Shown: positions 1-62,000 of the stretch, piece after piece
How the letters are laid out: each line of letters begins with the position of its first letter
How positions within the stretch are numbered: position 1 is the first letter of the stretch
DNA from: Laetmonice hystrix
Taxonomy: Eukaryota
Assembly: GCA_965235115.1 (NCBI GenBank)
Contig: OZ249436.1
Span: forward strand, 806,001-868,000
Reading direction: 5' to 3'
Length of the DNA stretch: 62,000 nt
Position numbers and translations under genes: made by a program
The notes under the pieces: generated by a model
The model's input: the letters and a program-made list of their open reading frames with translations, nothing else
What the model was told of the DNA's origin: nothing
Databases searched by the model: none

Positions 1-440
1 TCACAGATAGGTTATGTAAGTGGTGAAGTACTTGCTCACAGATAGGTTATGTAAGTCGTGAAGTACTTGCTCACAGATAGGTTATGTAAGTCGTGAAGTA
101 CTTGCTCACAGATAGGTTATGTAAGTGGTGAAGTACTTGCTCACAGATAGGTTATGTAAGTCGTGAAGTACTTGCTCACAGATAGGTTATGTAAGTCATG
201 AAGTACTTGCTCACAGATAGGTTATGTAAGTCGTGAAGTACTTGCTCACGGATAGGTTATGTAAGTCGTGAAGTACTTGCTCATGGATAGGTTATGTAAG
301 TCGTGAAGTACTTGCTCACAGATAGGTTATGTAAGTCGTGAAGTACTTGCTCACAGATAGGTTATGTAAGTCGTGAAGTACTTGCTCACAGATAGGTTAT
401 GTAAGTAGGTTATGTAAGTCGTAAAGTACTTGCTCACACA
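1..440. repeat. 35-bp minisatellite (intronic, runs off window)
   Basis: TCACAGATAGGTTATGTAAGTCGTGAAGTACTTGC repeated. Confidence 0.97.
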
Positions 441-674
441 TAGGTTTGACACAGGCATCGGTCAGAGAATACAAACATGTCTCATTGTGTTGACCCTTTG
501 ATATCTCTGGTATCATTGAAACATCTCCTGAGATATCAAAGGATTAGGTCAAAGTTATTACTAGTTTGATGCATTAATGGATGAAAACAATCGGTGAAAA
601 AATCCTAGGCAAGCTGAAAGAGTTCACCTTAACATGACAAGCTCCCCCAACGTGATGTTCTGACCCTGTTACAG

Positions 675-821
675 TGTGATGTGCCCGAGGGAGGAATCGT
701 ACCGAAGAGTCTGTACGCCGTGGACGACGAACTGGACAAGGATCGGTCACCTGAGGATTCTCACTTCTGTACAGACTCACTCTATCACACCGCCTACGTC
801 CACAAAGACTTCCCTCACGAG
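675..821 (+). CDS. SEC14L1: SEC14-like protein 1 (real-time/SEC14L1 family), internal exon; gene begins upstream of window
   Basis: ttacAG acceptor, GTaggt donor at 822, phase 0/0. Translation CDVPEGGIVPKSLY...TDSLYHTAYVHKDFPHE matches my recollection of vertebrate SEC14L1 (CEVPEGGLVPKSLY...KGAPHE). Confidence 0.93.
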
Positions 822-856
822 GTAGGTCGTCAACAAAACACCTATTCTTCTAACCT

Positions 857-1203
857 TTGTCCTGGGTGGGGCCAGGGGCTGTGAAGGCAGGAGTTGTTTC
901 TGTCCTGGGTGGGGCCAGGGGCTGTGAAGGCAGGAGTTGTTTCTGTCCTGGGTGGGGCCAGGGACTGTGAAGGCAGGAGTTGTTTCTGTCCTGGGTGGGG
1001 CCAGGGGCTGTGAAGGCAGGAGTTGTTTCTGTCCTGGGTGGGGCCAGGGACTGTGAAGGCAGGAGTTGTTTCTGTCCTGGGTGGGGCCAGGGGCTGTGAA
1101 GGCAGGAGTTGTTTCTGTCCTGGGTGGGGCCAGGGGCTGTGAAGGCAGGAGTTGTTTCTGTCCTGGGTGGGGCCAGGGGCTGTGAAGGCAGGAGTTGTTT
1201 CTG
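857..1203. repeat. 43-bp minisatellite (intronic)
   Basis: TGTCCTGGGTGGGGCCAGGGGCTGTGAAGGCAGGAGTTGTTTC, ~8 copies. Confidence 0.97.
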
Positions 1204-1279
1204 AGATGACAGAAGGAATCAGTCTGATGTAAACAATCTGATCCATTCAATGTTTTATCCTTGTGATGGTGGTTTCCAG

Positions 1280-1525
1280 GTACTGGTCCAGGTGCCACAA
1301 AAAGGTTGCGTCATCACGTGGGACTTTGACATTCTGAAGGGTGACGTGACATTTACCGTCCTGCGCAGTCGGCGTACGATGACAGCGACCCCCCACGAAC
1401 ATCACGTGAGCGGTGCTATTGGTGGCATTGGCTCCACTCAGTACGTCGATAAACATATGACGGTCGGCGTTGATATCAGCATCGTCGAGCCCCCTCTGGT
1501 GTGCAGGGACGGAGACAGTATCCAG
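1280..1525 (+). CDS. SEC14L1: SEC14L1-like exon, GOLD domain
   Basis: tttccAG acceptor, GTcagt donor at 1526, 82 codons. VLVQVPQKGCVITWDFDILKGDVTF...VEPPLVCRDGDSIQ resembles SEC14L1 VITWDFDVCKGD...ESPLICKEGESVQ. Confidence 0.95.
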
Positions 1526-1730
1526 GTCAGTTCACCGTACTCCCACCAGACGGCAGCACAGCACTGATTGGACTAGATCACAAAATGATGCATGGTTCCT
1601 CAGTGGCTGGACATATTCTGTCCGAAAGAAAGAAGACATTATTTTTAATTTTTCCTACTGATGTTCTGAGTTGAATAGGAAGTGTGGGACATATCATTAA
1701 CCTCGTTACCTGACCTTGACTTGTTTGTAG

Positions 1731-1873
1731 GGTTCTCATGTGACAAGTCAGTCTGGCTCCTACATTCTACAGTGGCGATACTTCGACTCAGCCAAAACGT
1801 CCTTCGACATCCTCTCAACTCACAAGTCGAAGGTCATGTATTACACGGAGCTGCTGCCCTCGGAACAGTTCCG
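1731..1873 (+). CDS. SEC14L1: SEC14L1-like exon, end of GOLD domain
   Basis: tttgtAG acceptor, GTaggt donor at 1874 (phase 2). GSHVTSQSGSYILQWRYFDS...HKSKVMYYTELLPSEQF(R), cf. SEC14L1 GSHVT...YILQW...HKCKVMYYTEV. Confidence 0.95.
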
Positions 1874-2202
1874 GTAGGTCATCAAGCACGTCAATATACT
1901 GAATGGTAACAAAATGCAGAGTGAATATTGTAGACATGAGCAGTCCAATGTCTACATGTTTTTGAGACACGCTGTGTCGGAATCATCACGTCTCATCTCG
2001 ACTTACTACCTGGTTAAATTGTTTAATTACTTTCTATTTCATATAATATTTACATGATACTTGAGGTCCTGTTTGAAGAGGAAAATTACCCTGGTCTCCT
2101 CTGATGTCTGGAGTTGAATGAGATCATTTTGCTATGACGTAATTCCTGTTGTATAAATAAATCCGATGAGCCAGTAACAAAATGACGGTGGTGTATTTTC
2201 AG

Positions 2203-2901: not shown

Positions 2902-3712
2902 ATGTCGACCAGGGCTTCTGGGGGCCTAGGTTCTCAGCTGTTGCCCACACTAACCCATGTCGACCAGGCCTTCTGTGGGCCTAGGTTCTCAGCTGTTGCC
3001 CACACTAACCCATGTCGACCAGGCCTTCTGTGGGCCTAGGTTCTCAGCTGTTGCCCACACTGACCCATGTCGACCAGGCCTTCTGTGGGCCTAGGTTCTC
3101 AGCTGTTGCCCACACTGACCCATGTCGACCAGGGCTTCTGTGGGCCTAGGTTCTCAGCTGTTGCCCACACTGACCCATGTCGACCAGGCCTTCTGTGGGC
3201 CTAGGTTCTCAGCTGTTGCCCACACTGACCCATGTCGACCAGGCCTTCTGTGGGCCTAGGTTCTCAGCGGTTGCCCACACTGACCCATGTCGACCAGGGC
3301 TTCTGTGGGCCTAGGTTCTCAGCTGTTGCCCACACTGACCCATGTCGACCAGGGCTTCTGTGGGCCTAGGTTCTCAGCTGCTGCCCACACTGACCCATGT
3401 CGACCAGGGCTTCTGTGGGCCTAGGTTCTCAGCTGTTGCCCACACTGACCCATGTCGACCAGGCCTTCTGTGGGCCTAGGTTCTCAGCTGTTGCCCACAC
3501 TGACCCATGTCGACCAGGGCTTCTGTGGGCCTAGGTTCTCAGCGGTTGCCCACACTGACCCATGTCGACCAGGCCTTCTGTGGGCCTAGGTTCTCAGCTG
3601 CTGCCCACACTGACCCATGTCGACCAGGGCTTCTGTGGGCCTAGGTTCTCAGCTGTTGCCCACACTGACCCATGTCGACCAGGGCTTCTGTGGGCCTAGG
3701 TTCTCAGCGGTT
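2902..3712. repeat. 55-bp minisatellite
   Basis: CATGTCGACCAGG...CCCACACTGACC repeated. Confidence 0.97.
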
Positions 3713-3862: not shown

Positions 3863-4689
3863 TAAAAACTCGCTCTCCCCCAGCCTATCCAAATGGTGGT
3901 GTGGAGTGGTAACACAATATTTAGGTAAAACTCGCCCTCCCCCAGCCTATCCAAATGGTGGTGTGGAGTGGAAACACAATATTTAGGTAAAACTCGCCCC
4001 CCCCCCCAGCCTATCCAAATGGTGGTGTGGAGTGGAAACACAATATTTAGGTAAAACTCGCCCCCCCCCCAGCCTATCCAAATGGTGGCGAGGAGTGGAA
4101 ACACAATATTTAGGTAAAACTCGCTCTCCCCCAGCCTATCCAAATGGTGGTGTGGAGTGGAAACACAATATTTAGGTAAAACTCGCCCTCCCCCAGCCTA
4201 TCCAAATGGTGGTGTGGAGTGGAAACACAATATTTAGGTAAAACTCGCCCCCCCCCCCAGCCTATCCAAATGGTGGTGTGGAGTGGAAACACAATATTTA
4301 GGTAAAACTCGCCCCCCCCCCCCCAGCCTATCCAAATGGTGGCGAGGAGTGGAAACACAATATTTAGGTAAAACTCGCCCCCCCCCCCCAGCCTATCCAA
4401 ATGGTGGTGAGGAGTGGAAACACAATATTTAGGTAAAACTCGCCCCCCCCAGCCTATCCAAATGGTGGTGAGGAGTGGAAACACAATATTTAGGTAAAAC
4501 TCCCCCCCCCCCCCAGCCCATCCAAATGGTGGTGAGGAGTGGAAACACAATATTTAGGTAAAACTCCCCCCCCCCCCCAGCCTATCCAAATGGTGGTGTG
4601 GAGTGGAAACACAATATTTAGGTAAAACTCCCCCCCCCAGCCTATCCAAATGGTGGTGAGGAGTGGAAACACAATATTTAGGTAAAACT
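3863..4689. repeat. ~62-67-bp minisatellite with variable polyC
   Basis: TAAAACTCG(C)nAGCCTATCCAAATGG...AATATTTAGG repeated. Confidence 0.97.
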
Positions 4690-4852: not shown

Positions 4853-5346
4853 GGCTGTCAGTGGTGGGGGTTAGCGCCTACTTGTGGAGGTTGGGGGTAT
4901 ATGATAGGCTGTCAGCGGTGGGGGTTAGCGCCTACTTGTGGAGGTTGGGGGGATAGGCTGTCAGCGGTGGGGGTTAGCGCCTACTTGTGGAGGTTGGGGG
5001 GATAGGCTGTCAGCGGTGGGGGTTAGCACCTACTTGTGGAGGTTGGGGTATATGATAGGCTGTCAGCGGTGGGGGTTAGCGCCTACTTGTGGAGGTTGGG
5101 GGGATAGGCTGTCAGCGGTGGGGGTTAGCGCCTACTTGTGGAGGTTGGGGGGATAGGCTGTCAGCGGTGGGGGTTAGCGCCTACTTGTGGAGGTTGGGGG
5201 GATAGGCTGTCAGCGGTGGGGGTTAGCGCCTACTTGTGGAGGTTGGGGGGATATGATAGGCTGTCAGCGGTGGGGGTTAGCGCCTACTTGTGGAGGTTGG
5301 GGGTAGGCTGTCAGTGGTGGGGGTTAGCGCCTACTTGTGGAGGTTG
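4853..5346. repeat. ~49-54-bp G-rich minisatellite
   Basis: GGCTGTCAGCGGTGGGGGTTAGCGCCTACTTGTGGAGGTTGGGG repeated. Confidence 0.97.
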
Positions 5347-6622: not shown

Positions 6623-8895
6623 TTGTAGGTCTATGGATTGTCGGTACATGTAGACGCTCAGGGTGGGACACCGCCCGGGCGGTTGTAGGTCCATGGATTG
6701 TCGGTACATGTAGACGCTCACGGTGGGACACCGCCCGGGTGGTTGTAGGTCCATGGATTGTCGGTACATGTAGACGGTTTGCCCACGGTGGGACACCGCC
6801 CGGGCGGTTGTAGGTCCATGGATTGTCGGTACATGTAGACGCTCAGGGTGGGACACCGCCCGGGCGGTTGTAGGTCCATGGATTGTCGGTACGTGTAGAC
6901 GGTTTGCCCACGGTGGGACACCGCCCTGGTGGTTGTAGGTCCATGGATTGTCGGTACATGTAGACGGTTTGCCCACCGTGGGACACCGCCCGGGCGGTTG
7001 TAGGTCTATGGATTGTCAGTAGGCCTACATGTAGACGGTTTGCCCACCGTGGGACACCGCCCGGGTGGTTGTAGGTCTATGGATTGTCAGTAGGCCTACA
7101 TGTAGACGGTTTGCCCACGGTGGGACACCGCCCGGGCGGTTGTAGGTCCATGGATTGTCGGTACGTGTAGACGGTTTGCCCACGGTGGGACACCGCCCGG
7201 GCGGTTGTAGGTCCATGGATTGTCGGTACATGTAGACGCTCACGGTGGGACACCGCCCGGGCGGTCCATGGATTGTCGGTACGTGTAGACGCTCAGGGTG
7301 GGACACCGCCCGGGCGGTTGTAGGTCCATGGATTGTCGGTACATGTAGACGCTCACGGTGGGACACCGCCCGGACGGTTGTAGGTCCATGGATTGTCGGT
7401 ACATGTAGACGGTTTGCCCACGGTGGGACACCGCCCGGGCGGTTGTAGGTCCATGGATTGTCGGTACATGTAGACGGTTTGCCCACGGTGGGACACCGCC
7501 CGGGCGGTTGTAGGTCCATGGATTGTCGGTACATGTAGACGGTTTGCCCACGGTGGGACACCGCCCGGGCGGTTGTAGGTCCATGGATTGTCGGTACATG
7601 TAGACGCTCACGGTGGGACACCGCCCGGCCGGTTGTAGGTCTATGGATTGTCGGTACATGTAGACGGTTTGCCCACGGTGGGACACCGCCCGGGCGGTTG
7701 TAGGTCTATGGATTGTCGGTACATGTAGACGCTCAGGGTGGGACACCGCCCGGGCGGTTGTAGGTCCATGGATTGTTGGTACATGTAGACGGTTTGCCCA
7801 CGGTGGGACACCGCCCGTGCGGTTGTAGGTCCATGGATTGTCGGTACATGTAGACGCTCACGGTGGGACACCGCCCGGGCGGTTGTAGGTCCATGGATTG
7901 TCGGTACATGTAGACGGTTTGCCCACGGTGGGACACCGCCCGGGCGGTCCATGGATTGTCGGTACGTGTAGACGCTCAGGGTGGGACACCGCCCGGGCGG
8001 TTGTAGGTCCATGGATTGTCGGTACATGTAGACGCTCAGGGTGGGACACCGCCCGGGCGGTTGTAGGTCCATGGATTGTCGGTACATGTAGACGGTTTGC
8101 CCAGGGTGGGACACCGCCCGGGCGGTTGTAGGTCCATGGATTGTCGGTACATGTAGACGGTTTGCCCACGGTGGGACACCGCCCGGGCGGTCCATGGATT
8201 GTCGGTACGTGTAGACGCTCAGGGTGGGACACCGCCCGGGCGGTTGTAGGTCCATGGATTGTCGGTACATGTAGACGCTCAGGGTGGGACACCGCCCGGG
8301 CGGTTGTAGGTCCATGGATTGTCGGTACATGTAGACGGTTTGCCCAGGGTGGGACACCGCCCGGGCGGTTGTAGGTCCATGGATTGTCGGTACATGTAGA
8401 CGGTTTGCCCACAGTGGGACACCGCCCGTGCGGTTGTAGGTCCATGGATTGTCGGTACATGTAGACGGTTTGCCCACAGTGGGACACCGCCCGTGCGGTT
8501 GTAGGTCCATGGATTGTCGGTACATGTAGACGGTTTGCCCACGGTGGGACACCGCCCGGGCGGTTGTAGGTCCATGGATTGTCGGTACATGTAGACGGTT
8601 TGCCCAGGGTGGGACACCGCCCGGGCGGTTGTAGGTCCATGGATTGTCGGTACATGTAGACGGTTTGCCCACGGTGGGACACCGCCCGGGCGGTTGTAGG
8701 TCCATGGATTGTCGGTACGTGTAGACGGTTTGCCCACAGTGGGACACCGCCCGAGCGGTTGTAGGTCCATGGATTGTCAGTAGGCCTACATGTAGACGGT
8801 TTGCCCACGGTGGGACACCGCCCGGGTGGTTGTAGGTCCATGGATTGTCGGTACATGTAGACGGTTTGCCCACGGTGGGACACCGCCCGGGCGGT
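6623..8895. repeat. 60/67-bp minisatellite
   Basis: TTGTAGGTCCATGGATTGTCGGTACATGTAGACG...GGGACACCGCCCGGGCGG repeated. Confidence 0.97.
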
Positions 8896-9461
8896 CGGAT
8901 TCAGTGGACTGTGAACGAGTTAATTTGGTGTGGATCATGTGGTCCTGATCCAAGTTTTTAGGGATCAAATGTGTATGGATCAGGAAGCGGAGCGTTCGTT
9001 ATTGTATCCTAGTAACAGTAATTATTATACGAATGTGTCTAGTCAGTGTCCTCTCTTACACTGAAGTTTATTAATGTTGGAAAGTCTCAGAGTATCTCAA
9101 CATGAAGACAGTTTCCATGGAATTTGTCCACAGTACATTCGTTGTACAGCGTTGTAGGAAATGTAAGTTGAGAAAAATTCTCTGATTGGTAACCGAAGCC
9201 CTGTGACGTAATTGTGACGTCATAACGATCTGTATTTAGATCCCGCGTGACCTGCTGACCTTTCGCTACTGACGTCACATACGCTGACCTCTGTGGAGAA
9301 AGGAAAGATCCCGATTTTGAAGATCATCTGCCACGAGCAACAAACCCAGAAAATGTTTTCATCAAATTCTCACAATACTTCAAGTATCATTTAAAATGAC
9401 AATCAATTTACGGAGTTTTTTTGACAGAAATATTTGTCTGAGAATGCTGGAAATGTGGTTT

Positions 9462-9746
9462 CAGGGCCTGCAGATTTCAAAGATTTCCCTATTAATCTAA
9501 AGCCCGATTTGAGAAAGTCCATAGGTTCGGTTGGGCACTCTGAAAGTCTTATAGTTGAAAGGCTGAGAATAATTTTGTGAACATATATCCTGGGCAGGTA
9601 TTTATTCCACATGTACCTGAAGAACTGACTTGAGGAGTCAGTGAGGGTATTTATCAAGGTTTGGCGACCGTGTATGGAAGGCGAAGAAACTTTTTACTGC
9701 TAAGGTTTGAAATAAAAAATTTTCTGCTTGATGAATCCAGGCCCTG
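9462..9746. mobile_element. Degenerate MITE, possibly PIF/Harbinger-like
   Basis: Ends CAGGGCCTG...CAGGCCCTG are inverted, with a looser match inward. Confidence 0.4.
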
Positions 9747-11945
9747 CTGTGAGGGAAATGTCCATCACTCAGACTGTATGACTTTCTCTGGTCCTCACTT
9801 CTAAACAAAAACTTGCCTCCTAGTTACCTGAGGGGCGTTGGTTTAGTGAGGAAGCAGAATCCTTGTTTGGTGTGACCTGACCTCCGGGTACTAAACTTGC
9901 CTCCTAGTTACCTGAGGGGCGTTGGTTTAGTGAGGAAGGAACTGCACTGTGAGCAGAATCCTTGTTTTGTCAGACCTCCGGGTACTGAACGCCCGCTGAT
10001 TCTAACAGGTGGCGCCACCGTCTGTTCTCTGTCAGGTGTTCACCTTGGCTCAGAGTGACGTAACATCATTATGCCGTCTTGAGATTTTATTTGTCTTCTT
10101 TTGGGATTTGTTCTTCCGTGGCTCTGTAAGAGTATGCCTGCCCGTCACGTGGGTAATTTGTGCAATTAATTAAGAGAAAAGGTAAGACCATGGTTAGATC
10201 GAGTTCCTGGTACAAGTCAGCAGGCTGCCGAATAGTCTGGTGGAAGGACTTGTCGTAACTCGGAGTGATCCGGCAGTGAGGGGGTTCTATATCTGGTACC
10301 CGTCACGGCAGGTCCCAACTTGAGTCGAGTAGCTCCACCTGGCGGTCATGCAGGTTGACGTAGCGGTATGTACATATTATGTACACCCTATATAATCGAG
10401 GGTTATGGATATTTTAACGTTTATGGTGGAAACATATCCTTTCAAGAGCCGTAATTTATCAGTGTGTTGATTGGTGGCGGCGGGTGGCATGGCTAACTGA
10501 CCAGGCAGTGGAGGTATTTTTGGTGGCGGCGGGTGGCATGGCTAACTGACCAGGCAGTGGAGGTATTTTTGGTGGCGGCGGTATTTTTGGAGTAGGTTTG
10601 TGAAATTAAACTGATCATAAGGACCAAAAGATAAAAGTTAAAGCGAGCTCAGAGTTGTGTGATAAAACCTACAGGATTTCTTGTATATATACATGTAGGA
10701 TGTGTAAGGCATTGTGATCAGATTTTATTGGCGTTTTTAGTCTTTATTTTTAGCGATCAAATGTGTTTTTACCTGGTCATGATGACTAAGGAAACAAGCC
10801 TCTTTTACCCGTGTTTTTGTTGGCCAGTGTTTAAGGAGAGTCAACCCAGTTGTAGATATTTTTAGGTGTGAGTATGTGGGTTTGATAAAGATGTAGTAAG
10901 GTGTTGGTAATGATTTAAAACATACAGTTAAAACATCAGTTTTAGGATGGGAGAGACACACAGGGAGAGTATGTGGATATAGATGGGCACATTGTTTTAC
11001 ATGTGCTGTCATTGGTTAACTGTTATAATGATACTCTCGCCCTGATTAGTTTTCAGTAATCAGTGTACGAGAGGTGGTCAGATCAGCTGTATCCAGTTAT
11101 CGGACCACTACCACGGTAGAAAACAGTCATTGATATGTTGTTACCCCTTACTCAGAAAGCTGAGGGACTCCCCTCCGACAGAACAAAGACTTACCAAGTA
11201 TTAGAAATTTGTACAATTATTCTTCAAAGGTTATACACTGTAATGTTATTTCGTCCAAATCACCCAACCCCCCAAAATGATGGCGGAGAACTCGTGAAAA
11301 TTATATCAAGCCAAAAAGAAAAAGCGATTTGCTTCCCGTATGAGTATAGAAAACCCCACATTATTGCTAACCTCAGACACAGCCTGCCAAACTAGCCTCA
11401 ATGACAGATTCTTGGTAAAAATCTGCGTCTTTACCCAAACATGAACAAAATGGGGTTGCGTCAAAAACATTGGAAGTGAGATTTCGGTCACCGAGGTAGT
11501 ACAGATTGCCGTTCAGTCTACAGTCAGGACCGCACAGATGGAAATGATAAAACTAGAGAGACTACTCGAGTAGTTGAGAAACAAGTCCTCATCGTCTAGT
11601 ATTGAAATCTGAGAAATCAACACTTTTGTGAAAATATTTCTAATGGCAAGCGCATTGAGTGACATTTTAATCCTCGTTTATATTACCCCTAAAGATTGTG
11701 TACCCCCCCCCCCCCCCGAACAAATTATTGAATACAAAAGTGACCACTTAACATCTTACGTAAGTTTAATCTGAACGTTTCTGATTGGCTGTGGCTGGTT
11801 TAGACCAGCCAATCAGAAGCGTTAACACACAGAGAACTCGGCTGTTATTGTTATCATGTTAACATTGGGTTCCGTCTGTTCTGTAACTATATATGGACCC
11901 TTCGCGCCCTCGGTCCTTTTTACACTGACCTAGGATGTTACACAC

Positions 11946-12318
11946 AGAATGGGACATTGTGCACCATGGAATGTTACATTCAGGATACTACCCAGAATGG
12001 GACATTGTGCACCATGGAATGTTACATTCAGGATACTACCCAGGATTTTGACATTGTGCACCATGGAATGTTACATTCAGGATACTACCCTGAATGGGAC
12101 ATTCTGCACCATGGAATGTTACATTCAGGATACTACCCAGAATGGGACATTCTGCACCATGGAATGTTACATTCAGGATACTACCCTGAATGGGACATTG
12201 TGCACCGTGGAATGTTACATTCAGGATACTACCCTGAATGGGACATTGTGCACCATGGAATGTTACATCCAGGATACCATCCAGAATGTTACATTGTGCA
12301 CCATTGAATGTTACATTC
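11946..12318. repeat. 48-bp minisatellite
   Basis: GAATGGGACATTGTGCACCATGGAATGTTACATTCAGGATACTACCCA repeated. Confidence 0.96.
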
Positions 12319-12547
12319 GTGCGCTATGGAATGCGAGCACCGCGTATATTTAATCCTGGGAGGAGGATAGACAGCAGAGGGCGCTGTTAATCTAGTGTCT
12401 GTCTAACCTCTCAGACAGTAAGACATGTTTGTAACACGCGGAGCGTTAGGATTGTATGTATTTAAAATGCACTGTACAATGTATTATAGACAGATAAATA
12501 TGTAATATGGCTATTATACATAATGGTATCTAACACACCAAGAAAGC

Positions 12548-12553
12548 AATAAA
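12548..12553 (+). other. Candidate polyadenylation signal
   Basis: AATAAA after an AT-rich UTR-like stretch with a GT-rich tract downstream; earlier AATAAA hexamers also exist. Confidence 0.3.
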
Positions 12554-12709
12554 AGCAAACTTTGACCAAGCCTGATTGTAATGTTTTCTGTTGAAGGTGA
12601 ATTCTGAGGAGACCGTCCGGTATTTGAAACGGTGGTGCTGATATCAAAATCAACAAAAGTGGCTTTTCCACAGAGTATTCATTGTTTCTAGATAGTTTAG
12701 ACACATTAA

Positions 12710-13239
12710 AGGGGCATGCTATGAAACACGTTTTTGAGGATTTCCGGCAATTATCCAACATGACCGTGTACTAGGAATCCAAGTAAATAATCCGACCACA
12801 GCATTTTGTCCTCCGACGCGTTTTCGCTGCCTATGCAGCACAAGTAGATTCTATACGACCAAACCTATAGATTTCTCCCGATAGCACATCTTCCGCCATA
12901 ATTTGCCATAGACAACCTCCCATCAACCCATGTAATTGCATACTGTGTCACATCCTGCGTGTGCACTCTCTGCATGTGCTTAGTCACGTGCTTCGCTTAG
13001 TTGTAAACAATTCAGCAGTTGCACTCGATCGTCCGGCATCAGAATGCCACCCAAAAAATATTTTACGAAATCGGCAGAAAAGCGGGCAAAGGAGCTTTAT
13101 AAACTTCGATTTCTCACACAAAATAAAACTGATAAGTCCTTCTTTGTTTACCAAGCAATATTAATGAAGGATCTCTTTATGAAAACAGCAAAAGTTCTTT
13201 GAAATACCGATTTTTCACGTTTCCTTATAATATGCCCCT
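12710..13239. mobile_element. Non-autonomous Kolobok-like DNA transposon
   Basis: TTAA on both sides (12706-12709, 13240-13243); termini AGGGGCAT...ATGCCCCT. TTAA TSD with purine-purine termini fits Kolobok rather than piggyBac. Confidence 0.75.
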
Positions 13240-13281
13240 TTAAAAACTATTGGTAGGCCTACTACTGTAGAGATGTATTAA

Positions 13282-13467
13282 GGACAAGTGCTAGTGTGAG
13301 GCCAAAAATTGGTTTGAGACAGATTTTTTTTAAATTTTGCAGATAAACAGAGTATGTTGTCCTCTTTCAAAATTCAGCAAAAAAATGATACCTCACCAGG
13401 TTACTTTTTTTGTTAAGAGCGTTTGAAATTGATATGTTCGTCATGTTAATTACTAATTACTGTTTAG

Positions 13468-13505
<38 letters not shown>

Positions 13506-13631: not shown

Positions 13632-13673
<42 letters not shown>

Positions 13674-49852: not shown

Positions 49853-50801
49853 AGACATGTCCATATGGACAGTATCCTGCTGTACCGTAAGATATGGTGT
49901 CTGCTCCAGTATTCCCACCTCAGACATGTCTGGATGTCCATATGGACAGTATCCTGCTGTACCGTAAGATATGGTGTCTGCTCCAGTATTCCCACCTCAG
50001 ACATGTCTATATGTCCATATGGACAGTATCCTGCTGTACCGTAAGATATGGTGTCTGCTCCAGTATTCCCACCTCAGACATGTCTATATGTCCATATGGA
50101 CAGTATCCTGCTGTACCGTAAGATATGGTGTCTGCTCCAGTATTCCCACCTCAGACATGTCTGGATGTCCATATGGACAGTATCCTACTGTACCGTAAGA
50201 TATGGTGTCTGCTCCAGTATTCCCACCTCAGACATGTCTGGATGTCCATATGGACAGTATCCTGCTGTACCGTAAGATATGGTGTCTGCTCCAGTATTCC
50301 CACCTCAGACATATGGACAGTATCCTGCTGTACCGTAAGATATGGTGTCTGCTCCAGTATTCCCACCTCAGACATGTCTGGATGTCCATATGGACAGTAT
50401 CCTACTGTACCGTAAGATATGGTGTCTGCTCCAGTATTCCCACCTCAGACATGTCTGGATGTCCATATGGACAGTATCCTGCTGTACCGTAAGATATGGT
50501 GTCTGCTCCAGTATTCCCACCTCAGACATATGGACAGTATCCTGCTGTACCGTAAGATATGGTGTCTGCTCCAGTATTCCCACCTCAGACATGTCTGGAT
50601 GTCCATATGGACAGTATCCTACTGTACCGTAAGATATGGTGTCTGCTCCAGTATTCCCACCTCAGACATATGGACAGTATCCTGCTGTACCGTAAGATAT
50701 GGTGTCTGCTCCAGTATTCCCACCTCAGACATATGGACAGTATCCTGCTGTACCGTAAGATATGGTGTCTGCTCCAGTATTCCCACCTCAGACATGTCTG
50801 G
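49853..50801. repeat. 77/63-bp minisatellite
   Basis: CATATGGACAGTATCCTGCTGTACC...CCTCAGACAT repeated. Confidence 0.97.
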
Positions 50802-53056: not shown

Positions 53057-56000
53057 ATCCCAGTATGTCAGGATTGTCTGAGTGAATCCGGGACAGTCTC
53101 TACCTCCCGTCATGTACAGCTTGGCCAGGACGTGGTTGGTTACCTCTATAGTTATACCACTATATCCCAGTATGTCAGGATTGTCTGAGTGAATCCGGGA
53201 CAGTCTCTACCTCCCGTCATGTACAGCTTGGCCAGGACGTGGTTGGTTACCTCTATAGCTATACCACTATATCCCAGTATGTCAGGATTGTCTGAGTGAA
53301 TCCGGGACAGTCTCTACCTCCCGTCATGTACTACAGCTTGGCCAGGACGTGGTTGGTTACCTCTATAGTTATACCACTATATCCCAGTATGTCAGGATTG
53401 TCTGAGTGAATCCGGGACAGTCTCTACCTCCCGTCATGTACTACAGCTTGGCCAGGACGTGGTTGGTTACCTCTATAGTTATACCACTATATCCCAGTAT
53501 GTCAGGATTGTCTGAGTGAATCCGGGACAGTCTCTACCTCCCGTCATGTACAGCTTGGCCAGGACGTGGTTGGTTACCTCTATAGTTATACCACTATATC
53601 CCAGTATGTCAGGATTGTCTGAGTGAATCCGGGACAGTCTCTACCTCCCGTCATGTACTACAGCTTGGCCAGGACGTGGTTGGTTACCTCTATAGTTATA
53701 CCACTATATCCCAGTATGTCAGGATTGTCTGAGTGAATCCGGGACAGTCTCTACCTCCCGTCATGTACAGCTTGGCCAGGACGTGGTTGGTTACCACTAT
53801 AGTTATACCACTATATCCCAGTATGTCAGGATTGTCTGAGTGAATCCGGGACAGTCTCTAACTCCCGTCATGTACTACAGCTTGGCCAGGACGTGGTTGG
53901 TTACCTCTATAGTTATACCACTATATCCCAGTATGTCAGGATTGTCTGAGTGAATCCGGGACAGTCTCTACCTCCCGCCATGTACAGCTTGGCCAGGACG
54001 TGGTTGGTTACCTCTATAGTTATACCACTATATCCCAGTATGTCAGGATTGTCTGAGTGAATCCGGGACAGTCTCTACCTCCCGTCATGTACAGCTTGGC
54101 CAGGACGTGGTTGGTTACCTCTATAGTTATACCACTATATCCCAGTATGTCAGGATTGTCTGAGTGAATCCGGGACAGTCTCTACCTCCCGTCATGTACA
54201 GCTTGGCCAGGACGTGGTTGGTTACCTCTATAGTTATACCACTATATCCCAGTATGTCAGGATTGTCTGAGTGAATCCGGGACAGTCTCTACCTCCCGTC
54301 ATGTACTACAGCTTGGCCAGGACGTGGTTGGTTACCTCTATAGTTATACCACTATATCCCAGTATGTCAGGATTGTCTGAGTGAATCCGGGACAGTCTCT
54401 ACCTCCCGTCATGTACTACAGCTTGGCCAGGACGTGGTTGGTTACCTCTATAGTTATACCACTATATCCCAGTATGTCAGGATTGTCTGAGTGAATCCGG
54501 GACAGTCTCTACCTCCCGTCATGTACTACAGCTTGGCCAGGACGTGGTTGGTTACCTCTATAGTTATACCACTATATCCCAGTATGTCAGGACTGTCTGA
54601 GTGAATCCAGGACAGTCTCTACCTCCCGTCATGTACTACAGCTTGGCCAGGACGTGGTTGGTTACCTCTATAGTTATACCACTATATCCCAGTATGTCAG
54701 GATTGTCTGAGTGAATCCGGGACAGTCTCTACCTCCCGTCATGTACAGCTTGGCCAGGACGTGGTTGGTTACCTCTATAGTTATACCACTATATCCCAGT
54801 ATGTCAGGATTGTCTGAGTGAATCCGGGACAGTCTCTACCTCCCGTCATGTACTACAGCTTGGCCAGGACGTGGTTGGTTACCTCTATAGTTATACCACT
54901 ATATCCCAGTATGTCAGGATTGTCTGAGTGAATCCGGGACAGTCTCTACCTCCCGTCATGTACTACAGCTTGGCCAGGACGTGGTTGGTTACCTCTATAG
55001 TTATACCACTATATCCCAGTATGTCAGGATTGTCTGAGTGAATCCAGGACAGTCTCTACCTCCCGTCATGTACTACAGCTTGGCCAGGACGTGGTTGGTT
55101 ACCTCTATAGTTATACCACTATATCCCAGTATGTCAGGATTGTCTGAGTGAATCCGGGACAGTCTCTACCTCCCGTCATGTACTACAGCTTGGCCAGGAC
55201 GTGGTTGGTTACCTCTATAGTTATACCACTATATCCCAGTATGTCAGGATTGTCTGAGTGAATCCAGGACAGTCTCTACCTCCCGTCATGTACTACAGCT
55301 TGGCCAGGACGTGGTTGGTTACCTCTATAGTTATACCACTATATCCCAGTATGTCAGGATTGTCTGAGTGAATCCGGGACAGTCTCTACCTCCCGTCATG
55401 TACAGCTTGGCCAGGACGTGGTTGGTTACCACTATAGTTATACCACTATATCCCAGTATGTCAGGATTGTCTGAGTGAATCCGGGACAGTCTCTACCTCC
55501 CGTCATGTACAGCTTGGCCAGGACGTGGTTGGTTACCTCTATAGTTATACCACTATATCCCAGTATGTCAGGATTGTCTGAGTGTATCCGGGACAGTCTC
55601 TACCTCCCGTCATGTACAGCTTGGCCAGGACGTGGTTGGTTACCTCTATAGTTATACCACTATATCCCAGTATGTCAGGATTGTCTGAGTGAATCCGGGA
55701 CAGTCTCTACCTGCCGTCATGTACTACAGCTTGGCCAGGACGTGGTTGGTTACCTCTATAGTTATACCACTATATCCCAGTATGTCAGGATTGTCTGAGT
55801 GAATCCGGGACAGTCTCTACCTCCCGTCATGTACAGCTTGGCCAGGACGTGGTTGGTTACCTCTATAGTTATACCACTATATCCCAGTATGTCAGGATTG
55901 TCTGAGTGAATCCGGGACAGTCTCTACCTCCCGTCATGTACAGCTTGGCCAGGACGTGGTTGGTTACCTCTATAGTTATACCACTATATCCCAGTATGTC

Positions 56001-56953
56001 AGGATTGTCTGAGTGAATCCGGGACAGTCTCTACCTGCCGTCATGTACTACAGCTTGGCCAGGACGTGGTTGGTTACCTCTATAGTTATACCACTATATC
56101 CCAGTATGTCAGGATTGTCTGAGTGAATCCGGGACAGTCTCTACCTGCCGTCATGTACTACAGCTTGGCCAGGACGTGGTTGGTTACCTCTATAGTTATA
56201 CCACTATATCCCAGTATGTCAGGATTGTCTGAGTCAATCCGGGACAGTCTCTACCTCCCGTCACGTACAGCTTGGCCAGGACGTGGTTGGTTACCTCTAT
56301 AGTTATACCACTATATCCCAGTATGTCAGGATTGTCTGAGTGAATCCGGGACAGTCTCTACCTCCCGTCATGTACAGCTTGGCCAGGACGTGGTTGGTTA
56401 CCTCTATAGTTATACCACTATATCCCAGTATGTCAGGATTGTCTGAGTGAATCCGGGACAGTCTCTACCTCCCGTCATGTACAGCTTGGCCAGGACGTCG
56501 TTGGTTACCTCTATAGTTATACCACTATATCCCAGTATGTCAGGATTGTCTGAGTGTATCCGGGACAGTCTCTACCTCCCGTCATGTACAGCTTGGCCAG
56601 GACGTGGTTGGTTACCTCTATAGTTATACCACTATATCCCAGTATGTCAGGATTGTCTGAGTGAATCCGGGACAGTCTCCACCTCCCGTCATGTACAGCT
56701 TGGCCAGGACGTGGTTGGTTACCTCTATAGTTATACCACTATATCCCAGTATGTCAGGATTGTCTGAGTGAATCCGGGACAGTCTCTACCTCCCGTCATG
56801 TACTACAGCTTGGCCAGGACGTGGTTGGTTACCTCTATAGTTATACCACTATATCCCAGTATGTCAGGATTGTCTGAGTGAATCCGGGACAGTCTCTACC
56901 TCCCGTCATGTACAGCTTGGCCAGGACGTGGTTGGTTACCTCTATAGTTATAC
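53057..56953. repeat. 107/110-bp satellite, ~3.9 kb
   Basis: ATCCCAGTATGTCAGGATTGTCTGAG...TTATACCACTAT, ~36 copies, with or without a 3-bp insertion. Confidence 0.98.
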
Positions 56954-57102
56954 AACTCCCTTCATGTTGACCCCCCAGAATGACGGTAAACCCATATATC
57001 AAGAGTCTCGTAATATCAAGGAAATACAGTGGGTGTATACCAAGTAGGATGAAAAGTAGACCTACAGGTTTGTCGGCAGGATATTCTGTGTTAGAGCGTA
57101 GA

Positions 57103-57260: not shown

Positions 57261-57743
57261 TAGAATTGCACGAGCCACCGAGATCTATAAGGTTCTGCCA
57301 TGCCTCAGGAAGTGCAGGCAATGTACGGTTCTGACAGAGCGAAACCTTGATTTATACTCGGTGAAGGATTTATACGAGAATCAAATCTCCTTCCTTGTTG
57401 TTTACTGCTTCAACTAAATGACGCGTCCGGATGTATTTGTACTAGATGTAAAAATGTAAAGACACTTTTATAAATTATGAGGCTGCAGAGCCTGCTGAAT
57501 ATTCATGACATAGGCCTGACATCGATTTCATGAAATTTATTCATAAACATGTTGTGATAATATGTTACTTAGCCTTTAAAACACGACAATCGGACCTCGA
57601 TCAGATTCTCTACAAGGTCTTGTGGAGCCCCAGGGGGTAATTTCGGATCATGTAATATGTTTCAAATATGTTTCATATATGGGCTGAAAATGGTAAAATG
57701 GGATTTAAGATATCGAAAGTGACCATAAGGAGACCTCGTCAAA

Positions 57744-58058
57744 TTGGGAATAGGCATGTTAACCTTACAGTAACTTGGAAATCTGGGAATAGGCATGTGA
57801 ACCTTACAGTAACTTGGAAATCTGGGAATAGGCATGTTAACCTTACAGGAACTAGGAAATCTGGGAATAGGCATGTTAACCTTACAGTAACTTGGAAATC
57901 TGGGAATAGGCATGTTAACCTTACAGTAACTTGGAAATCTGGGAATAGGCATGTTAACCTTACAGGAACTTGGAAATCTGGGAATAGGCATGTTAACCTT
58001 ACAGGAACTTGGAAATCTGGGAATAGGCATGTTAACCTTGCAGGAACTTGGAAATCTG
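57744..58058. repeat. 39-bp minisatellite
   Basis: TGGGAATAGGCATGTTAACCTTACAGTAACTTGGAAATC repeated. Confidence 0.96.
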
Positions 58059-59118
58059 CAAATAGGGAGAAAATGGCGTTGGCAACATTGAAGGAGATCC
58101 TTTTGAAATTTGGACTAGGGAATCCGTCACCCTCTAGGGAGCCCTCCTTCACTGTTCAAAGCCTGGATAAAACGAAGTCCGCCTACCTCAGCGAGTCAGT
58201 GGGATGGTTTCCTGTGCCGCTATAGATCTACATAACGGCTGCTGTCGTCCATGTAGGTCTTTTGTTTGACCCTGAAGGAACGCTGCTGGGTTCATAAATC
58301 ACTTCCGGAGGTCGGCGAGCACTGGGGACTGTTCCATGGCTGCCTGTGCTACCCGACACACAGACACCGCAGCGTCACGTTACGTCGTCAGCAACCAACG
58401 TCACTGCGGCGTCACGTCGTAGCAACCAACGTCAATCGAATAGAAATGTATGGGCATAGGTGACTGTGAGGAAAAATATTTTCTTATTTTCGAGATTTAT
58501 GGAAGTCAATTCAGTTGCCTACTACAGAGACTACAGTGGAAATAGAGGGGAAATAGGGCTTGTCCCTAGAAATTTATTTAAAAGATGAAAGATTTCCTGC
58601 AGTCTGGGGGTAACACAGTCCGCAGGAGCAATTTTTCTATTCGGATTTTTATCTTGGCCTTTACTGACACTGTTTGCCCGATACGTTACGAGTAGCGGGT
58701 AGGTTACAACCCCCCCCCCCCCAGCGTTCGGGTCCGGACTATAGAGTCTCGGGTAAGATCTATGGTTGAAGTTGTCTGGTGTGGAAACACCATGAGCCCT
58801 TGTAGTAGGCCTAGGTCTGGATTCTAACGTGTAAAATCAGGAATTACATAATTTCATCAGGGCCGTCCGCAGCCCAGAATTGTTAGAGATATTGAGAGAT
58901 TCCAAGTGCCACTTGTCAGTAGGGTCAGAGGGCGTCTTTGTAATAATTATGCCTGCGGTCGGGGGAATGACTCCCTGCCTGTGAGGAGGCCTACGTTTCA
59001 CTGTAAAGGTCGATAGAGCCACTCAGAACCAACTGTAATGGGCGCAGTACTAGAGGTGCGTGAGTAATTGAGGAGTTTAGAACTCAGGTGTGGAGACTTG
59101 GTTCCCACAGCCGAGCTA

Positions 59119-59588
59119 AGTAGGGCTAGGTTTTCAGCCATGGGTCTGACTCCCAAGTCTTAATGGTTTGATTGGCTTGATTGTGTGTCAGTGATCGTAC
59201 AGACGGTGTCGTAAAGTAGGGCTAGGGGTTCAGCCATGGGTCTGACTCCAAGTCTTAATGGTTTGATTGGCTTGATTGTGTGTCAGTGGTCGTACAGATG
59301 GTGTCGTAAAGTAGGGCTAGGGGTTCAGCCATGGGTCTGACTCCAAGTCTTAATGGTTTGATTGGCTTGATTGTGTGTCAGTTGTCGTACAGACGGTGTC
59401 GTAAAGTAGGGCTAGGGGTTCAGCCATGGGTCTGACTCCAAGTCTTAATGGTTTGATTGGCTTGATTGTGTGTCAGTGGTCGTACAGACGGTGTCGTAAA
59501 GTAGGGCTAGGGGTTCAGCCATGGGTCTGACTCCAAGTCTTAATGGTTTGATTGGTTTGATTGTGTGTCAGTTGTCGTACAGACGGTG
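59119..59588. repeat. 95-bp minisatellite, ~5 copies
   Basis: AGTAGGGCTAGGGGTTCAGCCATGG... repeated. Confidence 0.96.
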
Positions 59589-59802
59589 GCGCTGTTAACA
59601 CTAACAGCCACTGATGTATTCTACATGATAAGGTATCGAGTGTAGTTCCCCTGAGAGGTCCTCTCATCTTCCACACTCTCAGTCATTGGGTGGCAGCTGA
59701 ACTCGGCACCTAATGTAATTGGTAGCAAAGACTTCAGCCACGTAATAGTCTCTTTATGGACGCATAATTCCCATGGTGGACTCACGCCATCACCATAACG
59801 CT

Positions 59803-60312
59803 TTCTTCATGTAGGCGGTAATTACAGAGATAATGGTGGAAACAAGACCAGGTTTTATATTCGTCATGTAGGCGGTAATTACAGAGATAATGGTGGAAAC
59901 AAGGCCAGGTTTTATATTCTTCATGTAGGCGGTAATTACAGAGATAATGGTGGAAACAAGGCCAGGTTTTATATTCTTCATGTAGGCGGTAATTACAGAG
60001 ATAATGGTGGAAACAAGGCCAGGTGTTATATTCTTCATGTAGGCGGTAATTACAGAGATAATGGTGGAAACAAGGCCAGGTTTTATATTCTTGATGTAGG
60101 CGGTAATTACAGAGATAATGGTGGAAACAAGGCCAGGTTTTATATTCTTGATGTAGACGGTAATTACAGAGATAATGGTGGAAACAAGGCCAGGTTTTAT
60201 ATTCTTCATGTAGGCGGTAATTACAGAGATAATGGTGGAAACAAGGCCAGGTTTTATATTCTTCATGTAGGCGGTAATTACAGAGATAATGGTGGAAACA
60301 AAGCCAGGTTTT
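59803..60312. repeat. 57-bp minisatellite
   Basis: TCATGTAGGCGGTAATTACAGAGATAATGGTGGAAACAAGG... repeated. Confidence 0.97.
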
Positions 60313-60433
60313 ACATAATCTCAGTGGCAAATCGATTTTTCATGAACTTCTGTCACTTGAGGAGAGCTTTTAAGGCCTTTTAATTCGAAGGAATCCCGTG
60401 TATCTTGCAAAGACGTGTTTAAAAGTCGAGGTG

Positions 60434-60780
60434 AGAAATTGGTAAGGTTTTATACAAGCTTGTGTCCGTAAGAAATTGGTAAGGTTTTGTACAAGCTTGT
60501 GTCCGTAAGAAATTGCTAAGGTTTTATACAAGCTTGTGTCCGTAAGAAATTGCTAAGGTTTTATACAAGCTTGTGTCCGTAAGAAATTGCTGAGGTTTTA
60601 TACAAGCTTGTGTCCGTAAGAAATTGCTAAGGTTTTACACAAGCTTGTGTCCGTAAGAAATTGCTAAGGTTTTATACAAGCTTGTGTCCGTAAGAAGCTT
60701 GTGTCCGTAAGAAATTGCTAAGGTTTTATACAAGCTTGTGTCCGTAAGAAATTGCTAAGGTTTTACACAAGCTTGTGTCC
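60434..60780. repeat. 37-bp minisatellite
   Basis: AGAAATTGCTAAGGTTTTATACAAGCTTGTGTCCGTA repeated. Confidence 0.96.
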
Positions 60781-60823
60781 GATGTTCGTCCAGAGACTCG
60801 TCTAAGCCCGCTTACTTGAACAC

Positions 60824-60836
60824 TGCCCCCTGGTGG
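60824..60836 (-). promoter_or_regulatory. CTCF consensus-like motif
   Basis: Reverse complement CCACCAGGGGGCA. Confidence 0.5.
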
Positions 60837-61710
60837 GGATGCTCGTTGATATAAAACTTCCGGTTGGACCCCCGGCAACATTTTTCTATTAGCCACACTC
60901 ACAGACCATGAAATCTGTAATCTGTATGTTAACGTTGGCTTTTCTGTAGGATATAAAGAGTATTGTTAAAAAAAATAGATAGCTTGTTCTTAATTGTCCT
61001 GGTCCCTGCCCAGGGGGTACAATGTGAGAAGCTTAGTGACATATTACACCGGCCTGTCTGCACATTCATGGTTCCGATAGACCAACTGCGCAGAATTAAA
61101 AAAGGAGTTTGAATGTAGAACTATTTGCTGGTCCAGAGTTACTTGCATCAATGCCTCCCAATTGCCCGCCCCCAATAAGAACCGAACAGTGGTCTTGACA
61201 ATGTACTAATACTTGTTTTGATCTGACATGACGTGATATTTTTTTAGATAAGGTATTATATTATCAGTCCTGTTGAGAACACGAAAGGTTTGTAGCTTTG
61301 GATGTGGCCACCAACAAGTGCCAGGAGTCCGGAGGGGAAGTTACATAATATTGTTTACTTGGCTTTTTCATGTTTGACATGGCTGTCCTGGTGAGAGGTC
61401 TTACCGCTATTATAGAGAATAGATATACAACTATATAATATAGATCTATGAGAATATTAAATACGGACTTTTAGTTAACCTGACCTGACTGAGAAGAGGG
61501 TTATGTTCTTACAAGGTTTTAATGTTATGTAAGAAACATAATATTGTCGGGAGAAACAAAGAAATGTCGGCCGTAATTGTAATAGGAGCCAGTTTAGCTT
61601 GGAGCGATTTGCATGTGTCATTAGTGGTAGATTTAAATTGTATGGGAGGTTGCCATGGTTATGGCTGGATCCTGAAGGCCTGGGAGCAGGGTGTGATTAG
61701 AGGACGACGC

Positions 61711-62000
61711 CGTGACACCTGAAGTATAGATAGTACGGTGTAGATCAGAGAACGCTGTGACACCTGAAGTATAGATAGTACGGTGTAGATCAGAGAACGC
61801 TGTGACACCTGAAGTATAGATAGTACGGTGTAGATCAGAGAACGCTGTGACACCTGAAGTATAGATAGTACGGTGTAGATCAGAGAACGCTGTGACACCT
61901 GGAGTATAGATAGTACGGTGTAGATCAGAGAACGCTGTGACACCTGAAGTATAGATAGTACGGTGTAGATCAGACGCTGTGACACCTGAAGTATAGATAG
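61711..62000. repeat. 45-bp minisatellite (runs off window)
   Basis: TGTGACACCTGAAGTATAGATAGTACGGTGTAGATCAGAGAACGC repeated. Confidence 0.97.

Follow-up and report, generated by a model that had tools for sequence, protein, structure and literature searches.

Young minisatellite arrays private to their loci, and probably born in place, occupy 60% of a 62-kb window of the Laetmonice hystrix genome

Avian "sequence stuttering", in which unique sequence expands locally into imperfect tandem clusters, is described by Hron et al. 2026 (PMC12954441) as strictly local in origin, tens to hundreds of bases in scale and prone to place unrelated clusters side by side, with allelic variation and with intergenic DNA affected too. 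In that account only GC-rich dot chromosomes and the GC-rich genes of gerbils show it, the median intron cover on other chromosomes being about 0, and as to its cause, which is tied to the GC-rich dot chromosomes, the authors appear only to speculate. The "mirage" minisatellites of lancelets (Ebner et al. 2010, PMC3087553) are likewise reported as locus-specific tandem duplications of resident sequence (10–160 bp), with concerted evolution within clusters and copy numbers that differ between haplotypes, while human subtelomeric VNTRs are described as single-locus minisatellites dense near chromosome ends (Linthorst et al. 2020, PMC7608644). In the Haber-Louis model, duplication between short direct repeats seeds tandem repeats, and such microhomology-seeded duplication is reported for transposon-derived human minisatellites (PMC13167724, PMC3389668). 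The stretch of 62,000 bp analysed here (the window) shares its main features with these systems and is an extreme case of a kind of repeat birth known from microchromosomes of birds, from lancelets and from the ends of human chromosomes.

A TTAGGG telomere lies 0.8 Mb from the window, which is situated close to one end of the largest chromosome in a 627-Mb lophotrochozoan genome. Merging of TRF rows (unit at least 10 bp, length at least 100 bp) yielded 35 arrays totalling 37,278 bp, or 60.1% of the window, in agreement with the roughly 34 arrays on about 60% of the DNA that had been noticed in an earlier sequence-only reading. Basic units measure 19–107 bp, two arrays (at 48217, 21/54-bp, and 49857, 63/77-bp) being compounds of sub-units, and copies within an array match at 89–100%, so the high homogeneity claimed in that reading was real. 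As in VNTRs, units of about 10–100 bp stand head-to-tail in arrays of 0.1 to several kb. That no unit is common to several arrays also stood overall, the exception being a 73% low-complexity match between the arrays at 44073 and 48217, both G-rich and telomere-like. Edge units were 4.3% diverged and inner units 3.3%, a difference given here as raw values. The features are as follows (strand is given for exons; "self only" marks arrays that matched only themselves in the genome-wide search described below).

1–419, 35-bp array in a SEC14L intron; runs on upstream of the window; private, a neighbour's 70% match aside
672–822, + strand, SEC14L exon; start approximate
858–1203, 43-bp x8 array in a SEC14L intron; one 70% match elsewhere
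1280–1526, + strand, SEC14L exon; best named relative Owenia fusiformis SEC14-like 1, 82%
1731–1875, + strand, SEC14L exon
2203–2274, + strand, last SEC14L coding exon to stop; approximate
2902–3712, 55-bp x15 array; self only
3865–4689, 63/64-bp x13 array; self only
4853–5346, 49-bp x10 array; self only
6623–8895, 65-bp x36 array; 4-unit block duplication, TAGGCC inserted in 3 units; self only
10270–10375, one copy in the assembly, where contigs from each of the three runs show a tandem (go-back) junction of about 100 bp
10471–10581, 49-bp x2.3 array, 100% identical; self only
11945–12333, 48-bp x8 array; raw-data depth 5–8x that of flanks in one bin
about 15105–16548, non-autonomous TA-flanked inverted-repeat DNA transposon, host of the next array
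15881–16504, 53/57/59-bp x11 array; unit single-copy in 6/6 other covering element copies
17852–18902, 36-bp x28 array; one 67% match
19334–24449, 56-bp x92 array; block recurs 20 units apart
25378–25954, 52-bp x11 array; self only
26334–26781, 41-bp x11 array; self only
26808–29184, 43-bp x55 array; self only
29543–31214, 20-bp x84 array; only 65–74% matches
31494–33006, 36-bp x42 array; only 65–66% matches
33477–33657, 82-bp x2.2 array; upstream partial third copy
34090–34562, 33-bp x14 array; self only
34966–36205, 30-bp x41 array; only 66–69% matches
37091–37246, 40-bp x4 array; self only
37947–39180, 95-bp x13 array; self only
39431–40008, 92-bp compound array; self only
40615–41689, 33-bp x31 array; only 67–71% matches
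41777–42674, 19-bp x49 array; higher-order block of 9 units
43215–43465, 43-bp x6 array; self only
44073–47827, 47-bp x80 G-rich array with AGGGTTAGGG; block recurs 25 units apart
48217–49079, 54/21-bp G-rich compound array; only 63–74% matches
49857–50801, 77/63-bp compound array; no outside match among the 40 of 169 candidates scored
51809–52540, 73-bp x10 array; self only
53057–56957, 107-bp x36 array; self only
57741–58066, 39-bp x8 array; self only
59118–59588, 95-bp x5 array; self only
59803–60313, 57-bp x9 array; self only
60434–60781, 37-bp x9 array; self only
61707–62000, 45-bp array; extends 2.7 kb past the window

As can be seen, arrays occupy two SEC14L introns, DNA past the stop codon and the interior of a transposon, just as had been noticed before. 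To call the window genic was an overstatement: SEC14L, whose 3′ end takes up the first 2.3 kb, is the only gene recognised, none of the 66 open reading frame pieces scanned (88 listed) reached the Pfam cut-off, with two matches below it, and Pfam gave no family for three of the SEC14L exons. Avian stuttering is said sometimes to take in exon fragments, and lancelet mirages, reported gene by gene, span exon-intron boundaries (PMC3087553); here, 0/35 arrays include an edge of a SEC14L exon or overlap the four exons. The earlier observation that exons are spared is thus true but uninformative, since the four exons make up only about 0.6 kb: by chance, about 0.8 of the 35 births would fall in them, and none would do so with P of about 0.45.

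We searched the whole 627-Mb genome with the units of all 35 arrays. Matches were to the array itself for 25, at 63–74% only for nine, and to single copies elsewhere for one; no array had a near-identical counterpart at another place, as is expected of single-locus VNTRs, nor did any unit recur in arrays with common flanks at many loci, as in Helentron/HINE elements or multilocus minisatellites. The weak relatives of the nine arrays may be old family members. One 17-kb query is uninformative on arrays, its matches being dominated by the high-copy MITE at 12705–13243. Among 102 young arrays from the window and the samples described below, just three pairs matched (two arrays that cross the window edge and one local duplicate), leaving about 99 different units. 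Nothobranchius furzeri, another genome high in tandem repeats (about 21%), is in contrast reported to owe them to a few abundant centromeric families, one 77-bp unit making up about 10% (PMC2688266). The same search recovered 2,632 candidates for a dispersed 52-bp family, which served as a positive control. The existence of this family, and of an array inside a transposon, is what one would expect if arrays belonged to a few satellite families or were repeats inside dispersed transposons of the Helentron/HINE type; yet no window array belongs to the 52-bp family, other copies of the host transposon lack the array and 25/35 arrays match only themselves, so that this very improbable explanation is largely refuted for the window.

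The host transposon revealed how one array began. The unit of array 15881–16504 is present once in 6/6 other transposon copies that cover it, flanked by TATGG repeats 53 bp apart, i.e., an ancestral A-B-A structure; internal arrays were seen in 0/8 copies fetched, whose extra length is due to nested insertions. This is the one array of the 35 for which a single-copy ancestor was seen directly. Raw-read contigs were consulted from three runs of one sample, which is probably the source of the assembly. At 10375, where the assembly has a single copy, contigs of all three runs (one contig per run, one sample, 88% likeness) contain a go-back junction, which probably marks an array at 10270–10375 on the other allele. 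Candidate differences between alleles are one probable presence/absence allele and one unit variant, both from contigs of one sample. Since units are private, transposon ancestors are single-copy and an array-bearing allele is probable, the view that arrays are local amplifications of resident sequence, and not one dispersing family, is supported, as the sequence-only reading had proposed.

Array ends tend towards whole units plus 4–10 bp. Ends fell within −5 to +10 bp of a whole unit in 53/74 arrays, compared with 26.9 expected for random ends, in a noisy statistic (14/74 arrays lie beyond ±10 bp). An overhang of 4–10 bp was present in 19/74 arrays (5.5% for blunt duplication, 6.8 under a mixed null); on its own, this excess does not reach significance when the null is one of purely random ends (p = 0.18). 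The end statistics, together with the one reconstructed case (5–6 bp), support the earlier suggestion of microhomology priming. Duplications in yeast rad27 are reported as 5–108 bp between 3–12 bp repeats (PMC5677150), with unit and homology sizes like those of the window arrays. Long arrays hold 9–36 distinct unit variants in blocks that recur at different offsets and are themselves edited; block duplications at offsets of 4, 9, 20 and 25 units exceed those in shuffles, with block structure significant (p < 0.05) in 6/11 long arrays. The order of variants shows that blocks were duplicated again and again. Since these blocks differ in size, growth in a single rolling-circle burst is disfavoured, rolling-circle copying being the other mode that had been suggested. 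Small circles excised between microhomologies, amplified as rolling circles and re-inserted at their origin do predict the private units and whole-unit phase observed, but a burst should leave identical units or a strict period, circles should sometimes land elsewhere (0/35 did), and a hammerhead core occurs in no window unit; we consider this scenario improbable.

It is hardly credible that the arrays are an assembly artefact. Although no read or contig across a whole array was seen in the three runs of the one sample, arrays hold ordered, mutually diverged variant blocks, and the 48-bp x8 array had contig depths of 200, 296 and 323 in its first bin, compared with about 25–80 in unique flanks, depth not being equal to copy number.

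We therefore favour, at a probability of about 0.8, the reading that the arrays are locus-private VNTR-type minisatellites, born where they stand and then grown by block duplication. A single-copy stretch of about 20–110 bp between short identical motifs (about 2–10 bp) would be duplicated head-to-tail by mis-annealing in lagging-strand synthesis or break repair, a step seen in one case and presumed for other arrays. The pair would then grow, as variant order indicates, by repeated duplication and deletion of 1–25-unit blocks, whether by slippage, by unequal exchange between sisters or homologues or by gene conversion, and this would also keep copies alike. Near-neutral arrays may survive where DNA is non-coding, come to differ from allele to allele and build up unevenly over the genome, with the highest density here, close to the end of the largest chromosome; they would have no function of their own, birth and growth being fast relative to loss.

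To place the window in the genome, 260 kb outside it was sampled at fixed positions; since this is not a whole-genome TRF, genome-wide figures are rough. Similar private arrays covered about 16% (CI 7–28%) of twenty 3-kb samples from seven chromosomes, with 21 arrays in 60 kb. On C1, 10-kb samples had a mean array cover of 0.31 at 0–12 Mb (fourteen) and 0.06 at 16–50 Mb (six). A general distal gradient, considered on the strength of C1, failed on the 3-kb samples of C1–C7 (0.17 in fourteen at most 3 Mb from an end vs 0.16 in six mid-chromosome, p = 0.75), and end enrichment was seen on C1 only. Unit GC was 0.48 and background 0.45, with no excess skew (p = 0.27); G-richness or strand skew is unsupported as a general trigger, arrays 44073 and 48217 excepted. 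Unlike in avian stuttering, arrays thus lie at both ends and middles of 37–74 Mb chromosomes, at near-background GC and skew, in a lophotrochozoan, and unlike in human VNTRs, whose enrichment is ascribed to units of >60% GC (PMC7608644), GC is not the driver.

One can ask whether birth in place is driven mainly by high meiotic recombination and double-strand breaks near chromosome ends, in the manner of human subtelomeric VNTRs and avian dot chromosomes, with nothing special genome-wide. The telomere-proximal window, the C1 samples and the reported 21-fold enrichment of human GC-rich VNTRs within 5 Mb of ends (PMC7608644) favour this, whereas the nearly equal cover of C1–C7 ends and middles, the barely GC-richer units and a private 42-bp x31 array in mid-C3 (22.6 of 45 Mb) do not. 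Since samples are small and centromeres unplaced, it is compatible with part of the pattern, and we regard it as a possibility that we lean against.

In 228 kb of DNA outside arrays, the motif TAGGCCTA was over-represented 12.7-fold (77 vs 6.0), and TAGGCC was inserted at TA both in array units and in copies of the transposon, one run also showing it as a variant at 12178; there are, in addition, TA-flanked elements whose ends read GG...CC. From known TA-transposon biology, we take TAGGCCTA and TAGGCC to be excision footprints. Breaks from cut-and-paste traffic, whose repair gives footprints and short tandem duplications, could then have seeded the arrays. However, such a motif occurs in only 4/74 units (2.2% of random stretches), a weak showing for footprints as seeds, and the densest part of the window (25–43 kb) has unique spacers free of dispersed repeats, which makes this source unlikely. 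Another motif, CTRRT, was counted near 19/35 arrays, a raw figure on which we base no claim.

The sequence-only reading had also implied unusual replication or repair in this lineage. This is unproven, since birds, lancelets and humans are reported to show this pattern too and a predicted FEN1 gene, with five collinear open exons matching XPG_N, XPG_I and helix-hairpin-helix, is present at C7:34.33 Mb; a mutator arising through FEN1 loss was discarded on the latter ground. The unusual part is the amount of arrays: studies of microhomology seeding describe rare seeds, whereas here seeds reached 5–90 copies at a few hundred arrays per Mb, as extrapolated from 21 in 60 kb. Our literature search, with subscription journals mostly outside it and hence weak evidence of absence, brought up no paper that describes private minisatellites across the genome of an annelid or another lophotrochozoan, or TAGGCCTA as a genomic footprint. 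A minisatellite mutator state that is genome-wide and independent of GC, with about 10^5 private young arrays (the same extrapolation) on about 1/6 of the genome and alleles that differ, is a speculative extension that we hold to be rather doubtful. It might stem from a shifted balance in flap processing or in large-loop repair, or from a heavy load of transposon-excision breaks, of which TAGGCCTA would be the footprints, and birth would be fast enough for one animal's two alleles to differ in which stretches turned into arrays.

How unique DNA gives rise to minisatellites, and what makes certain regions fill up, is an open question. With hundreds of young private arrays in each Mb and with ordinary GC, a genome like this would allow thousands of before/after comparisons, their source being single-copy ancestors recoverable from transposon copies and the other allele, and these would separate GC/G4 explanations from those invoking recombination or repair. 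A sizeable share of genome size would consist of repeats missed by family-based repeat libraries and, if true, the mutator state would be a natural system in which to watch minisatellite birth.

Merging of Tandem Repeats Finder rows (unit of at least 10 bp, total length of at least 100 bp) gave 35 arrays that together take up 60.1% of the window (37,278 bp), with units of 19-107 bp and 89-100% matches between copies, much as the sequence-only reading had described them in number, unit size and homogeneity. All 35 were searched genome-wide by a procedure that relies on shared words and that distant relatives may escape. Twenty-five arrays matched themselves alone, and nine had outside matches at 63-74% identity only; many weak matches of the G-rich arrays starting at 44073 (47-bp unit, 80 copies) and 48217 (54/21-bp compound unit) were telomeres (40 of 169 candidates scored). 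Outside matches of array 15881-16504 were single copies within a transposon. The search is able to detect tandem families, since a control query with an older dispersed family from the samples (52-bp unit) returned 2,632 candidates on many chromosomes. Four further arrays, sampled on C5 and in mid-C3, were likewise private, and 102 young arrays from the window and samples yielded three matching pairs, accounted for by two arrays that cross the window edge and one local duplicate. The 52-bp family (76-89% matches; L014:1130-1451 and L019:4612-6372, also L003, L005 and L021, all genome pieces fetched for comparison) is a second, transposon-like class alongside the private arrays.

The host of array 15881-16504 is a TA-flanked element bounded by terminal inverted repeats. 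Eight of 29 candidate loci of this host element were fetched, of which six span the unit region, and in all six the unit is present once, so that insertion of the element at this place preceded the birth of the array. The single-copy stretch in those six copies carries TATGG at both ends, 53 bp apart, an A-B-A arrangement like the one that PMC3389668 gives in summarising the Haber-Louis model. The first unit of the array is the 53-bp form; those after it are lengthened to 57 and 59 bp by small insertions. The 57-bp insertion variant of units 2-3, absent from unit 1, recurs exactly in one distant copy of the transposon (L067), perhaps through parallel insertion at one TA or conversion between copies. 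The searches with all 35 arrays, the single-copy ancestors of 15881 and the probable second-allele array described below bear out the core proposal of the first reading, local amplification and no single dispersing family.

Contigs from three runs of one sample, probably the source of the assembly, were compared with positions 8950-12700. In each run, one contig reads to 10375 and then returns to a diverged copy of ~10270, forming a tandem junction ~100 bp long with a depth of 71, 84.5 and 107.7 vs ~29, 60 and 41 nearby. In the assembly the 10270-10375 stretch occurs once, with a single 63-bp match at 81% elsewhere. An array on the other allele would explain the junction most simply; joints under 95% likeness can stem from repeats, and the junction may come from an unassembled paralogue. 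Across these 3.75 kb, contigs and assembly are listed as differing at ~65 single letters and by several indels, and a 66-bp replacement at 11046-11113 is present in all three runs; the differences may reflect high heterozygosity, with repeats contributing part. Although none of the contig records compared spans any array from end to end, the depth across the first bin of the 48-bp x8 array in the three runs (200, 296 and 323, depth being no copy number) argues against the arrays being an assembly artefact.

For the analysis of array ends, 74 complete young arrays were used, 29 of them from the window (unit 19-130 bp, matches of at least 88%, at least 2.5 copies; arrays cut by a sample edge excluded and one duplicate removed). 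Fifty-three end -5 to +10 bp from a whole unit number, where 26.9 were expected with random ends (p = 7e-10), and 14 fall beyond +/-10 bp. An overhang of 4-10 bp was found in 19 of the 74 against 6.8 under a mixed null (p = 9e-5) and 5.5% in simulated blunt duplications; taken alone, this excess was not significant in the 74 arrays against a pure random-end null (p = 0.18). The statistics are compatible with a tandem duplication that would be bounded by short repeats and whose edges would later decay.

Long arrays were coded unit by unit as variants, and block structure exceeded that of shuffles in 6 of 11 (p < 0.05). Repeated blocks comprised 11 units at offset 25 in array 44073, 13 units at offset 9 in 41777, 4 units at offset 20 in 19334 and 4 units at offset 4 in 6623, the block copies being distinguished by additional deletions. 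This pattern marks growth in successive steps, by slippage, unequal exchange or conversion. Rolling-circle copying, one of the two example processes named in the sequence-only reading, is disfavoured as a single burst by blocks at such varied unit offsets with further deletions, an order of variants that points to successive events instead. The G-rich arrays within 44010-49079 hold AGGGTTAGGG, and degenerate TTAGGG repeats precede the first one; arrays 44073 and 48217 were possibly seeded by interstitial telomere-like sequence.

One gene was recognised in the window:

~672-2274: last four coding exons of SEC14L, with arrays in two introns and downstream of the gene

Among named relatives, SEC14-like 1 of Owenia fusiformis comes first (82%), which points to a lophotrochozoan, probably an annelid, as the source animal; no other gene was recognised in the window, and none of the 66 ORF pieces scanned (88 in all) reached the Pfam cut-off. 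An open frame at 37606-37926 (+) with 14 CAG codons, a proline-rich stretch and a gtgagt donor-like end, and without a Pfam match, is a possible exon of an unrecognised gene. Arrays are indeed absent from the four exons, as had been remarked, but chance suffices for this, ~0.8 births being expected by hand arithmetic in ~0.6 kb of exon.

The window is C1:806001-868000 of a 627-Mb assembly. Since C1 (73.8 Mb) has telomere repeat at both ends, a true chromosome end is 0.8 Mb away. Mean array cover was 31% at 0-12 Mb of C1 (fourteen 10-kb samples) and 6%, mainly older dispersed repeats, at 16-50 Mb (six 10-kb samples). A general chromosome-end effect, suggested by C1, was unsupported in 3-kb samples of C1-C7 (17% near ends, n = 14, vs 16% in the middle, n = 6; p = 0.75). 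In twenty 3-kb samples, 21 young arrays made up 16.5% of 60 kb (bootstrap 7-28%), a rough figure since sample positions were fixed, not random. Microsatellites were scarce (0-4% cover outside the telomere), and the excess thus concerns units of minisatellite size specifically. The GC of units was 0.48 vs 0.45 (p = 0.007), and their skew did not depart from random (p = 0.27). Within a patchy genome-wide feature, the window forms a local peak. C6:1-200 (L031) starts with TTAGGG oriented as it would be at a right end; the starts of C21 and C30 are telomere-like variant repeats (L043, L045), and all three starts are possible mis-oriented terminal pieces.

As far as the relevant part of PMC5677150 (citing Tishkoff 1997) describes them, yeast rad27 (FEN1) mutants show duplications of 5-108 bp between 3-12 bp repeats, and a passage of PMC13167724 connects duplications of this kind with Okazaki flaps and with tandem-repeat initiation. 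Because array sizes match these duplications, the FEN1 gene was sought in the genome. A candidate at C7:34.33 Mb consists of five open exons in collinear order that match XPG_N, XPG_I and helix-hairpin-helix. The acidic motifs FDG, EAE, EDMD and GCDY, which have a catalytic role, are present in these exons. Judged from this predicted gene, simple loss of FEN1 is excluded as the cause; a subtler FEN1 change may be involved, and a lineage-specific repair defect is hypothesised.

The second lead is break load from transposon excision. In non-array DNA of the window and samples, TAGGCCTA is 12.7-fold over-represented (77 vs 6.0), as are TAGATCTA (5.8x), TACCGGTA (4.1x), TAGTACTA (2.8x) and TACATGTA (2.4x). 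Insertions of TAGGCC at TA sites were seen within units of arrays, within copies of transposons and, in one run, as a variant. Sites of these motifs are as follows:

7019-7026, 7089-7096, 8778-8785, 12178 and 15005-15050: sites in the window; also in L025 and L067

TAGGCCTA and the TAGGCC insertions were probably left behind when TA-targeting DNA transposons with GG...CC ends were excised; no paper on an TAGGCCTA-type genomic footprint was found in the literature covered (partial). This enrichment and the insertions at TA make break load a possible, though rather unlikely, cause of the arrays; the putative footprint motifs occur in 4 of 74 units, which is no clear enrichment. A MITE with terminal inverted repeats (12705-13243, 540 bp) had 4,874 first-look candidates genome-wide, the best 39 of which, at 96-97% identity, are spread over many chromosomes; the family is high in copy number and very recent. 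Another inverted-repeat element, whose long arms are poly-T/poly-A (13277-13927), and a related partial copy 20 kb off (33750-34060) were recognised by eye.

The closest published phenomenon is the 'sequence stuttering' of chicken dot chromosomes, which, in the portion of PMC12954441 that presents it, consists of local, unrelated and recent clusters like those of the window; its GC-rich dot-chromosome setting and inclusion of exon fragments are features that the window arrays do not share. Lancelet mirages (PMC3087553) and human subtelomeric VNTRs (PMC7608644), as outlined in parts of these sources, belong to the same class of object. In Nothobranchius, by the relevant section of PMC2688266, a tandem-repeat content of 21% stems from a small number of centromeric families, an organisation opposite to that of the private units here. 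No report of private minisatellites on such a scale in a lophotrochozoan was found in the literature covered (partial, main texts). The arrays are real, locus-private, recently born minisatellites, apparently made by a two-step process that is already known; what is unusual is their density and apparent genome-wide extent.
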